64,000 nucleotides of DNA. Origin: an uncultured Ruminococcus sp. (lineage in GTDB: Bacteria > Bacillota > Clostridia > Oscillospirales > Ruminococcaceae). The translations under genes were made by a program, and so were the position numbers. The DNA lies in the NCBI GenBank assembly GCA_900318825.1, contig ONMB01000012.1, positions 27,081-91,080 on the forward strand, written 5' to 3'. Shown piece after piece: positions 43,191 through 50,030 of this stretch (positions are counted from its first letter, which is position 1; every line of letters starts with the position of its first letter). The notes below the pieces were generated by a model. The model made no database searches, had not been told where the DNA came from, and worked only from the letters and a program-made list of their open reading frames with translations.

Positions 43191-44708
43191 TTATAGAGAA
43201 AAAAGGTTCTTTCCCTTATCAACTGAGAACTCACCCTTGCGGTCTGAGCCGGCGCTGATACCAAACTTGCTTCCGGCAACGAGCTCCGGTGAGAGCATGA
43301 GAACACAACGGAAGTCACTCGGAGGTGTCAGCGAAGCCGCTTCCTTGCCGTTGATCGAGAGCTTGACGGTTGTCCCGCCGGAGACAGTTCCGCCGAGGTC
43401 GGTTATAACATAGGGAGTTGTCGCGTTTGAAAGCGCTGTGACCTGATTTCCGGCTGCAAGGAGAGTGCCGTCATTATAATTAAAAGGACCTGCCGCATAT
43501 ATCGAGCTTTTTTCTTCCTTTTTGCCGCCGTATATGTACGAAGTACCGCCGTTGATATTGATGCTGCCCTTGGACTTGAGACCGTTTGTGCCGCCAGTGA
43601 CAGTGAGTGTACCGCCGTTGATACTGATGTCGTCGTTTGCGCAGATGCCGGACTTCACAGCTTTGATGTTGCAGATGCTGTTGTCAAAGATGACGTCATC
43701 GTCGCTGGAGATACCGTGAGCGTTGCCGGCATTTATGTTGAGCGTACCGTTGCCTTTGATACGGAGAGTGTCATTGGAGAAGATAACGCCGTCGTTTTTC
43801 TTGTCCTTGGTCGTGTCGGCGAGGTTGTTAACGGAGCCCTCCTTGACCTTGACGGTACACTTCTTTGCTTCGCCGACGTATATCGCCGGACCGTAGCTGC
43901 AAGTGATATCCACGCCGTTGAGGATTATCGTTACCTTTTCCTCTGAGGCAGTGCTGACGTATATCTGACCGTCTGAGACCTTTCCTGTGAAGAGGTAGTC
44001 GCCGCCGGAGGTTATCTTGACTGTCGAGCCGTCCGCAACGGCGTTCTCGCCGGTTATGGAAGGCTTTGAGCCGAGCTTTATCTCAGCCGTGTAGGATTTT
44101 TCCTCTTCCTCGGCAGGCTGAGTGCTGTTCTGTGAGCCGCCGCCCGAAGGAGTTTGCGCTGGAGTTGTTGCCTTCTGTGGAGTCTGTGAGCCGCCGGAAC
44201 TTCCCCCGGAGCTTCCTCCTGAAGTGTTCCCACCGCCCGAAGCCGGAGATTGCTGCGGAGTCTGTGGGCTTCCTGAGCTTCCGCCGGAGCTTTCACCTGA
44301 ACTGCCGCTGCCGGAGTTGCTGCCTGAACCGCTTCCGCCGGAAGCTCCCGGCTCAGTTGCCTGCTGAGCTGTCTGACCGCCTGAGCTGTTTCCGCCGTTA
44401 TCTGCTGTGGGGTTGCTGTTTCCGGAAGCGCTTGTAGCTTTCTGACCGTTATTGCTGCCGCTGGCTGACGTCGAAGCCTGTGATGAAGTCTGAGTGGATT
44501 TCTCATTTGAAGCGCCCGTGCCCTTTTCAGTGGACTTTTCCGATGCACTCTGAGCCGCACCGGAAGCTGCTTCCGCAGATGCAGACGAGCCTGAAACGCC
44601 TGCCGGAGATGCTGTTGAGGAGCTGCTTGCAGCGTCCCTGCCGCACGAAAAAGCAGTTGTCATCATAGTGAGAGCTGCGAGTGCAGCGGCTAACCTTTTG
44701 TACTTCAT
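43191..44708 (-). CDS. Cthe_2159/DUF4353-type beta-helix carbohydrate-binding lipoprotein with long Ser/Gly linker
   Basis: Lipobox AFSC; S/G/T-rich linker; ITSGGDYLFTG..DGQIYV, LNGVDI, IFSNDTLRIKGNGTLNI. Confidence 0.82.
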   Translation of the reverse strand: MKYKRLAAALAALTMMTTAFSCGRDAASSSSTASPAGVSGSSASAEAASGAAQSASEKSTEKGTGASNEKSTQTSSQASTSASGSNNGQKATSASGNSNPTADNGGNSSGGQTAQQATEPGASGGSGSGSNSGSGSSGESSGGSSGSPQTPQQSPASGGGNTSGGSSGGSSGGSQTPQKATTPAQTPSGGGSQNSTQPAEEEEKSYTAEIKLGSKPSITGENAVADGSTVKITSGGDYLFTGKVSDGQIYVSTASEEKVTIILNGVDITCSYGPAIYVGEAKKCTVKVKEGSVNNLADTTKDKKNDGVIFSNDTLRIKGNGTLNINAGNAHGISSDDDVIFDNSICNIKAVKSGICANDDISINGGTLTVTGGTNGLKSKGSININGGTSYIYGGKKEEKSSIYAAGPFNYNDGTLLAAGNQVTALSNATTPYVITDLGGTVSGGTTVKLSINGKEAASLTPPSDFRCVLMLSPELVAGSKFGISAGSDRKGEFSVDKGKNLFSL

Positions 44709-44809
44709 AATAATTTCTCCTGACTGTGATATCCTTTAGATACGGAATTAGCCAGACCAGAGAAACTCTGAGTCCGGCTGTCCGTTATATTAAAGAGGTG
44801 GTGTAGCTA

Positions 44810-49700: not shown

Positions 49701-50030
49701 AATATTACCGGCGGCTATTACTGTGCAAACGGTCAGGAACCCCTTGACTGCGGCGACGGCGGCGGATTTACTATCAATACCAAGGGCGGAACCGGTATCA
49801 CTATGACTGCCGGTAACACAAATCTTGCAACACGCTATTCATTCGTTGACAATTCAGGAAAGATCGTTGTATCGTTCCTCTCGGCGAACGGAAATATCAG
49901 CAAGAACCTCTCAGACAGCTCGCTCAGCCTTTACACAGGCGGAACAGTCAGCGGCGGTACTGATCTTATCTCAGCTGCACCGCAGACAGTCTGCATCGGC
50001 GGTACTCTTTCAGGCGGTACTACTAAATAA
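46743..50030 (+). CDS. Secreted dockerin protein with two Cthe_2159/DUF4353 beta-helix domains
   Basis: Signal peptide; N-terminal dockerin; two blocks ITIT..GSY.ISG / VTITKPGTF.VSG followed by INGG...DGI repeats; Gly-rich inserts. Confidence 0.87.
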   Translation: MKKSGVKKILAGLSSLCVLAAAMPAASYAAETTGAVRKLYGDANCDGYVNIADAVLVMQVSTNPDKYAQGKSEVSISAAGERNADVDGKAGLTNSDALLIQKHKLGLIDKFPVEEQTAADYDVEINLTGKTIEAACDADKTTYFTVNEAQNVITITHSGSYLISGTLEDGQICVNIPDEAADPDTVKLFLNGVNITGKSAPAILVSNAENTSVNIVDDTENTITDGDTAYLSADGTASGDAVIEAKDDLTIKGGDKGNGILNITVNTQDAVNCKNDLKINGGNINVKTLNSTDKTNGLNGKKSLTVKSGTLKVDAEGDGIKSSKGAVTVSGGSTSIKAGNDAVQADTTIDISGGTIAAGGDRGFTATTGINITGGTVIATATDNQAKNVTASGQAVMLLNCIDDATNTKDGTWKKANTLFVSSMSGKVDFTKKYKYVLMSDPSMLTGKQVFIQNLGNGAEVAYGTGEAKSVRFDLTDSVNTFDNVDPAAEFPVPETEDHDTEENTINFNGVSVETSASADTATVNGSAVTITKPGTFTVSGESKEAQIIVDVDKTAYPAAVVELDLSGADLSNSTTAPIYVASVGDEVQIVAKKGTVNAISDGTSHTQNYTDSDGKTNTVEGAIFARDDIKFKGSGTLTVNGNSDDAIVGKNDIKIYNGNLTVNAVDDGIRGKDSVIIGDDVKADGTAADNSGLVLNVNTKYGDGIKSTSDEVADGKNYGNVTINGGKITINCEALNADVENSSGGDGIQAQQSFVMNGGDVDITVYKGSSFTGTSSSSSTGGQQQPGGGGWQGGGGFPGGGGGFPGGPGGFGMDGNANHTQNTAKGIKASGLFEDDGTTLKSGGTITINGGSLTIDSSDDCLHSAGAMDINGGNLVLKSADDGLHSDTTLTIGKTAANTFDDVVIYIPKCYEGVEAVTIYQNSGTVYVVSGDDGYNAAGGSDGSGGGFPGWGSSNFSGSINIKGGLAVVNSANGDHDAFDSNGNINITGGYYCANGQEPLDCGDGGGFTINTKGGTGITMTAGNTNLATRYSFVDNSGKIVVSFLSANGNISKNLSDSSLSLYTGGTVSGGTDLISAAPQTVCIGGTLSGGTTK

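Follow-up and report, generated by a model that had tools for sequence, protein, structure and literature searches.

What would a cellulosome-bearing Ruminococcus do with a second enzyme for making polyphosphate? The question is raised by a locus in a 64,000-nucleotide stretch of DNA, here called the window, from an uncultured Ruminococcus sp. (assembly GCA_900318825.1, contig ONMB01000012.1, positions 27,081 to 91,080), where an operon encoding a VTC-domain protein, a DUF4956 membrane protein and a Cthe_2159-type lipoprotein lies divergent from the gene of a large secreted protein that combines a dockerin with two Cthe_2159 domains (Table 1). The genome also has a PPK1 gene (PPK2 was not found in the assembly, which is 84% complete), so that cytoplasmic polyphosphate synthesis is already covered and a second synthase would otherwise be redundant. 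The reading favoured here, to which we give a probability of about one half, is that the VTC operon and the dockerin gene form one regulated system by which polyphosphate is made, exported and bound outside the cell by beta-helix proteins. The observed part of this proposal is its gene content, residue conservation, co-occurrence and a shared promoter box. The module is real, conserved and co-regulated; it likely functions as a VTC-type synthase, and it stands outside the eukaryotic complex.

The first line of evidence comes from the enzyme. The VTC-domain protein matches its Pfam family with an E-value of 2e-41, and profile search, predicted model and fold search all place its triphosphate tunnel fold closest to yeast Vtc4. 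When a profile of 57 bacterial VTC proteins was compared with solved structures, only Vtc2, Vtc3 and Vtc4 chains were matched, with Vtc4 best, and the predicted model (predicted local distance difference test score, pLDDT, 92) gave Vtc proteins as the top fold matches among those listed. The Vtc4 residues that contact triphosphate and metal have been described, and in yeast mutants of eight of nine of them lower polyphosphate, E426 being a metal ligand (10.1101/2023.01.27.525886; this and the other papers cited here were available in part). All nine residues reported for catalysis or metal binding are present in the protein studied here. In the alignment of the 57 bacterial proteins K12, R72, R74, K91, Y151, E199, S225 and K226 are invariant (57/57) and correspond to Vtc4 K200, R264, R266, K281, Y359, E426, S457 and K458, while R153, the counterpart of R361, is kept in 56. 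The lysine K458, matched by the invariant K226, is what sets Vtc4, which is active, apart from the inactive Vtc2 and Vtc3. Hydrolases of the tunnel fold rely on a four-glutamate patch that Vtc4 lacks (PMC4641920). Those compared (AtTTM3, YgiF, CYTH) share the fold and rank lower in the fold search; unlike them, the VTC protein shows one such glutamate and has basic residues, as does Vtc4, at the remaining positions that could be matched (R8, K201 and probably K100, mapped by sequence and not by superposition). Because all nine catalytic and metal-binding residues of Vtc4 are kept, polymerase is the likeliest activity, and the polyphosphate-type synthase proposed in the initial annotation holds at the level of sequence.

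The second line of evidence is the membrane partner. In a phylum sample of 200 Bacillota genomes, 30 VTC-positive (with 35 VTC loci) and 170 VTC-negative, DUF4956 occurred in 29 of the former and none of the latter; in the thirtieth VTC-positive genome the DUF4956 copy is cut by a contig end. At 33 of the 35 loci DUF4956 adjoins VTC or lies one gene away, and a separate pattern-based sample found VTC at 71 of 78 DUF4956 loci (80 examined). VTC and DUF4956 are thus a near-obligate pair, and the recurrence noted earlier for it is now quantified. The DUF4956 protein of the locus (Pfam E-value 1e-13) has two arginines, R95 and R97, at a helix end that are invariant in 54 sequences, and the positions of R185 and K187 are basic in 91%; if the ACT-type domain is cytoplasmic, all four would face the cytoplasm. 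The eukaryotic VTC complex (yeast Vtc4/Vtc3/Vtc1; PDB 3g3q, 3g3r, 7ytj, 8i6v) has the same tunnel fold and catalytic residues, and a membrane partner is almost always present in both systems. In contrast to the eukaryotic complex, the bacterial enzyme is a stand-alone domain without an SPX domain or fused membrane helices, its partner is a five-helix protein with an ACT domain, and the product would leave the cell, whereas there it enters the vacuole. A longer protein carrying both Pfam domains (P0121) was considered as evidence of a fusion and rejected as a likely deletion or assembly artefact, because it lacks the C-terminal VTC catalytic motifs and was found on a single contig.

The third gene is what distinguishes these loci from one another. 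CotH kinase is the usual third gene and Cthe_2159 is an alternative in the same slot: counted by hand over the 35 phylum-sample loci, CotH is nearby in 21, Cthe_2159 in 5 and neither in 9, of which 5 end at a contig edge. One or both of the two families were found in 28 of the 30 VTC-positive and 5 of the 170 VTC-negative genomes; for Cthe_2159 alone the figures are 10 and 1, so that 10 of the 11 Cthe_2159 genomes carry VTC. The initial annotation had Cthe_2159 as partner of the pair, which stands in that the family is tied to VTC across Bacillota; it had overlooked CotH kinase, which is the more frequent of the two. A secreted partner is present at nearly every VTC locus. Cthe_2159 proteins come in two forms, a long one with a ladder of Asp, His and Glu residues and a short one without it. 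The long form is the usual operon partner outside Ruminococcus. In a set of 16 long-form sequences, chosen by two of these same motifs, each ladder residue is kept in 15 to 16. In the present locus, the short form is seen in the lipoprotein and in the first of the two domains of the large protein, whose second domain is of the long form. Three VTC-less genomes examined for Cthe_2159 had short forms only, and VTC near a long-form Cthe_2159 gene was also seen in a planctomycete and in a Bathyarchaeota (archaeal) genome. All three domains match the Cthe_2159 family (PF14262), whose structure PDB 4peu matches the first domain of the large protein; the parts of the family descriptions that were available mention neither a tie to VTC nor a long form with the Asp/His/Glu ladder. 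The family's domain was acquired from bacteria by rumen fungi (10.1101/401869).

Gene sets with the same pair have been recorded before. Accessory genes for cotH, poly-phosphate polymerase, DUF4956 and DUF4832 stand beside Gram-positive pel loci (10.1101/768473), and VTC and CotH genes are tabulated at a Clostridium perfringens locus (PMC2879425), with no function assigned to the VTC-DUF4956 pair in the available portions of either source. In contrast to those sets, the third gene here is Cthe_2159 and not CotH, no pel genes adjoin, and a cellulosomal member is joined through a shared promoter box. The VTC gene of C. thermocellum has been found mutated in adapted strains (PMC10503014, PMC7063780). 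Five relatives of the organism also have a second VTC-DUF4956 locus (L046-L050), at about 24% identity and with CotH as third gene; in three of the five a two-component system is divergent from it.

What joins the dockerin protein to the operon is its promoter. The intergenic inverted repeat consists of two copies of one promoter, TTTAAG-N5-TTTAAG-N10-TATAAT, each about 60 nucleotides before a start, in which 11-bp direct repeats replace the -35 element, an architecture that we take to be of the OmpR/PhoB type. The window served to define the box, which was afterwards looked for in other upstream regions, allowing no more than one mismatch. It stands before 21 of 23 VTC genes and 13 of 16 of the large dockerin genes; of the other Cthe_2159 genes 3 of 20 have it, and of 145 control genes none. 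Of the three large genes without it, one lacks upstream sequence and two have a TTTCAG variant, which is the box type of the second, CotH-type VTC locus in those same genomes (a variant box stands at four of the five loci L046-L050). Seven sites were found in the genome, with the window pair best, against 0 to 2 in each of 10 shuffled genomes; at a score of at least 0.5 there are 2 sites in the genome and 1 in the 10 shuffled genomes combined. An exact-pattern scan of 41 genomes gave 52 sites, all within the genus, and the reversed pattern 1; of the 52, matched by hand, 37 precede VTC (20) or Cthe_2159 (17) genes.

The initial annotation noted that the dockerin gene is divergent from the operon; this arrangement is not conserved. 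The large two-domain gene occurs in 17 of 24 relatives and is divergent from VTC in a near relative (G014) only; it lies about 7 kb from VTC in G002 and elsewhere in 14 relatives, and its place is unsettled in one. Conserved adjacency was accordingly rejected (1 of 17). In another relative, G013, a single-domain member of the same clade, as placed by a quick tree without bootstrap, is divergent from VTC, so that the divergent arrangement may be old or recurrent. Because the box is shared even where the gene is unlinked to VTC, the dockerin protein likely belongs to the VTC system by regulation, not by position, a reason for its membership that the initial annotation lacked. The N-terminal dockerin matches the group 1 dockerins of R. 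flavefaciens (5m2s, 5m2o), and the same type occurs in the GH5 and GH9 proteins of the window and in 29 open reading frames (ORFs) of the genome in all. By this dockerin sequence, a signal peptide read from the sequence and the cohesin genes of the genome, the large protein is of group 1 dockerin type, as its earlier description as a secreted protein with the dockerin of the two cellulases had it. In the operon itself, the short lipoprotein gene follows DUF4956 in 16 of 21 scorable genus relatives, and two more end at a contig edge.

Of 12 regulators found beside VTC loci in other Bacillota, 9 have as their best match one response regulator encoded elsewhere in the genome (G000:C37:66484-67188). 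It has a weaker box before its own gene and is likely the activator of both promoters. Weaker boxes were likewise seen at C37:64416-67188, a two-component pair with a long low-complexity insert in the kinase, and at G000:C14:13250-15823, a MacB/FtsX-type ATP-binding cassette exporter. The link to phosphate status proposed earlier is without support, since no pst, phoU or phosphatase gene stands behind the box at the 7 sites in the genome or at 14 unassigned sites from relatives; as 11 related regulators also all fell below the PhoB cut-off, membership in the Pho regulon was rejected. In G002:C46, G004:C101, G015:C4, G017:C7, G018:C252, G019:C5 and G023:C5 (loci L288, L299, L298, L290, L300, L297 and L295, in that order) the box precedes a short C-rich stretch without a clear ORF. 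Related stretches occur at G000:C33:29034 and G014:C3 (L285, L291), and a hairpin follows several of them. We regard this stretch as a candidate regulon small RNA, one that could pair with ribosome-binding sites; the three loci scanned gave no match in Rfam.

The favoured reading can be put as a sequence of steps. A dedicated OmpR-family two-component system would activate both promoters, VTC would polymerise polyphosphate from ATP at the membrane, and DUF4956 would carry it across, presumably as an oligomer that steers the chain by its conserved arginines and lysine on the cytoplasmic side. The tethered short-form lipoprotein would capture the chain at the membrane, and the long-form domain, through its Asp/His/Glu ladder, may hold it on the cellulosome as a Ca or Mg salt or process it there; Cthe_2159 would take the slot that CotH kinase holds in most other genomes. 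The broader claim, that a bacterial VTC-like machine secretes polyphosphate, that Cthe_2159 is its extracellular receptor or enzyme and that the whole is wired into the Ruminococcus cellulosome under a dedicated two-component regulon, is offered tentatively and may well be too wide.

Several observations weigh against polyphosphate export. The hydrolase-type acidic residue E10 is kept in 56 of the 57 VTC proteins, where Vtc4 has T198, and the literature covered, outside which most subscription papers lie, reports no activity of a bacterial VTC; nor did it offer functional work on bacterial VTC or DUF4956, or connect Cthe_2159 with polyphosphate. DUF4956 gave no sequence match to Vtc1, Vtc3 or Vtc4 and its helix order is unlike the three-helix channel unit of VTC; with the MgtC-like layout described below, this makes the split Vtc4-like synthase and channel of the initial annotation an analogy only. 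Polyphosphate binders usually show basic surfaces, and the Cthe_2159 domains of the locus are net acidic, so that a cation bridge would be needed for polyphosphate binding. Cthe_2159 is reported to bind cellulose and polygalacturonate (via 10.1101/401869), for which polyphosphate is not required. The operon lipoprotein is missing in 5 of the 21 scorable relatives, G013 has the box on neither of its divergent genes, and the co-occurrence counts overstate significance, kin not being independent. Among the proteins scanned, an HlyD adaptor, which would imply export across two membranes, turned up at just 1 of 11 planctomycete loci, and none of 34 proteins scanned from diderm and archaeal loci was one; TolC had no match in the ORFs scanned. 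The planctomycete VTC loci L227, L230, L236 and L237 show HlyD with a dual-specificity-type phosphatase, thymidylate-kinase-like proteins or an EF-hand/PPDK_N protein.

The prevalence of CotH suggests a different product. The exported compound could be a short-lived phosphoryl donor, and long-form Cthe_2159 a metal-dependent transferase or hydrolase that, like CotH, phosphorylates surface proteins or polysaccharides. This would account for a kinase as third gene at 21 of the 35 loci against 5 for Cthe_2159, for the Pel or other polysaccharide genes that flank several CotH loci and for the resemblance of the Asp/His/Glu ladder to an active site, and it fits diderm loci where CotH is fused to an acidic beta-helix. 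However, we know of no beta-helix phosphotransferase, the operon lipoprotein lacks the ladder and the CotH-dockerin gene of the genome has no true box, and we consider this explanation rather improbable. The diderm loci in question (L133, L178, L234 and similar) have a CotH-like domain fused to an acidic right-handed beta-helix beside VTC and DUF4956; a local Cthe_2159 profile did not match these beta-helices. The CotH kinase of the genome has a dockerin of another type (G000:C59:62843-64960, L286), and a box before its gene was rejected when the match proved to be that gene's ribosome site.

The architecture of DUF4956 leads to another alternative, in which nothing is exported. Like the MgtC/SapB proteins, DUF4956 has in its predicted layout a small multi-helix membrane domain followed by a C-terminal ACT-type domain. 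A fold search matched this ACT domain to MgtC C-terminal domains among many tied matches (Z 8.2 and 7.6); it returned matches to the ACT domain only. An atlas look-up added a weak MgtC lead (score 0.78, all atlas leads being below 0.9). In contrast to MgtC/SapB, DUF4956 is tied to VTC and gives no Pfam MgtC (PF02308) match, and none was found in the assembly. On this basis VTC might make membrane-proximal cytoplasmic polyphosphate or a signal, DUF4956 might be an MgtC-like anchor or regulator, and the beta-helices might be calcium- and pectin-binding adhesins in the same envelope or cation-stress regulon, consistent with the reported ligands of the Cthe_2159 family and with the presence of the box before other lipoproteins and ORF-less stretches. 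Such a scheme seems unlikely, since it leaves unexplained the near-confinement of Cthe_2159 to VTC genomes, the secreted partner at nearly every VTC locus and the invariant DUF4956 arginines at a helix end. Finally, an inward flow, in which the beta-helices capture external polyphosphate or another polyanion, DUF4956 takes it into the cell and VTC either hydrolyses it or works in reverse to recover phosphate or ATP, is suggested by the retained E10 and by the likeness of a tethered lipoprotein beside a membrane protein to uptake systems, but it is quite improbable given the invariant polymerase-specific lysine (K226/K458) and basic exit residues, the full acidic patch that hydrolases use, the lack of pst or phoU behind the box at the sites scanned, and CotH partners that suit the supply of a donor better.

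Table 1. Features of the VTC-DUF4956-Cthe_2159 locus (window positions)
Feature	Position	Strand	Details
VTC-domain protein, 264 residues	45534..46328	-	Pfam, alignment, predicted model; predicted cytoplasmic
DUF4956 membrane protein, 239 residues	44810..45529	-	Five predicted helices and C-terminal ACT-type domain
Lipoprotein, 505 residues	43191..44708	-	Lipobox, Ser/Gly tether, short-form Cthe_2159 beta-helix without acidic ladder
Terminator-like hairpin at operon end	43139..43165	-	
Secreted protein, 1,095 residues	46743..50030	+	Signal peptide, group 1 dockerin, short- then long-form Cthe_2159 domain
Group 1 dockerin	46854..47084	+	Residues about 38-114
Promoter box of VTC operon	46389..46421	-	TTTAAG-N5-TTTAAG-N10-TATAAT; top-scoring match in genome
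Promoter box of dockerin gene	46652..46684	+	TTTAAG-N5-TTTAAG-N10-TATACT; third repeat upstream; second-best match in genome
Asp/His/Glu ladder of long-form beta-helix	49320..49694	+	D860 D861 H864, D882 D883 H886, E913 E916, D933 D934 N937, D978 D981 N983

The four genes lie where the initial annotation had placed them, as their ORFs and Pfam domains confirm, and so does the operon, with one correction to its structure. The likely VTC start, read from the sequence, is ATG 46328, and the likelier start of DUF4956 is ATG 45529, which has a ribosome site 10 nucleotides upstream and leaves a 4-nucleotide gap to VTC; the overlap that had been described arises only with a start at GTG 45541. The long tether of the lipoprotein was also found, as 183 residues with 51 Ser and 36 Gly after a lipobox Cys at residue 22, and the Pfam Cthe_2159 match in this protein covers profile positions 1-198 of 262. 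Pfam finds two Cthe_2159 stretches in the large protein, which starts at ATG 46743. No NCBIfam model matched any of the four proteins, their named close homologues are from Ruminococcus, and the assembly yielded no VTC or Cthe_2159 genes beyond those of the locus. A sigma-70-like promoter is present further upstream of VTC. Parts of all four genes are represented among the contigs of RNA libraries from three studies, such contigs carrying neither level nor strand.

Around the locus, a ribbon-helix-helix-like gene and clpB (window 39306-42594) are found downstream of the VTC operon in most genus relatives. Two RNA runs of one sample reach very high contig depth over the intergenic region at 42699-42930, which also has strong hairpins (z -5.3 and -6.2) and sigma-70-like promoters that oppose each other. 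It may encode a small RNA or an antisense pair; no Rfam family reached its cut-off there. At 26560-28551, two dockerin genes have irregular ends, with one dockerin truncated and one bearing a duplicated segment, possibly through assembly errors.

The accepted makers of bacterial polyphosphate are PPK1 and PPK2, acting in the cytoplasm; the source of the extracellular polymer has been described as open by authors who report no VTC4 homologue in their organism (PMC13484657). The shared box, which is absent from the published work covered, and the candidate regulator make the system accessible to small experiments. If polyphosphate is indeed made and exported as proposed, a third, export-coupled synthase, present in about 15% of the sampled Bacillota genomes (30/200), would add a pathway to those known. 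It would offer a phosphate donor to secreted CotH kinases, whose role in cellulosomes has been called unclear (PMC12484212). DUF4956 would gain a testable function, Cthe_2159 would have to be re-interpreted, and polyphosphate would become a working part of the fibre-degrading complex.

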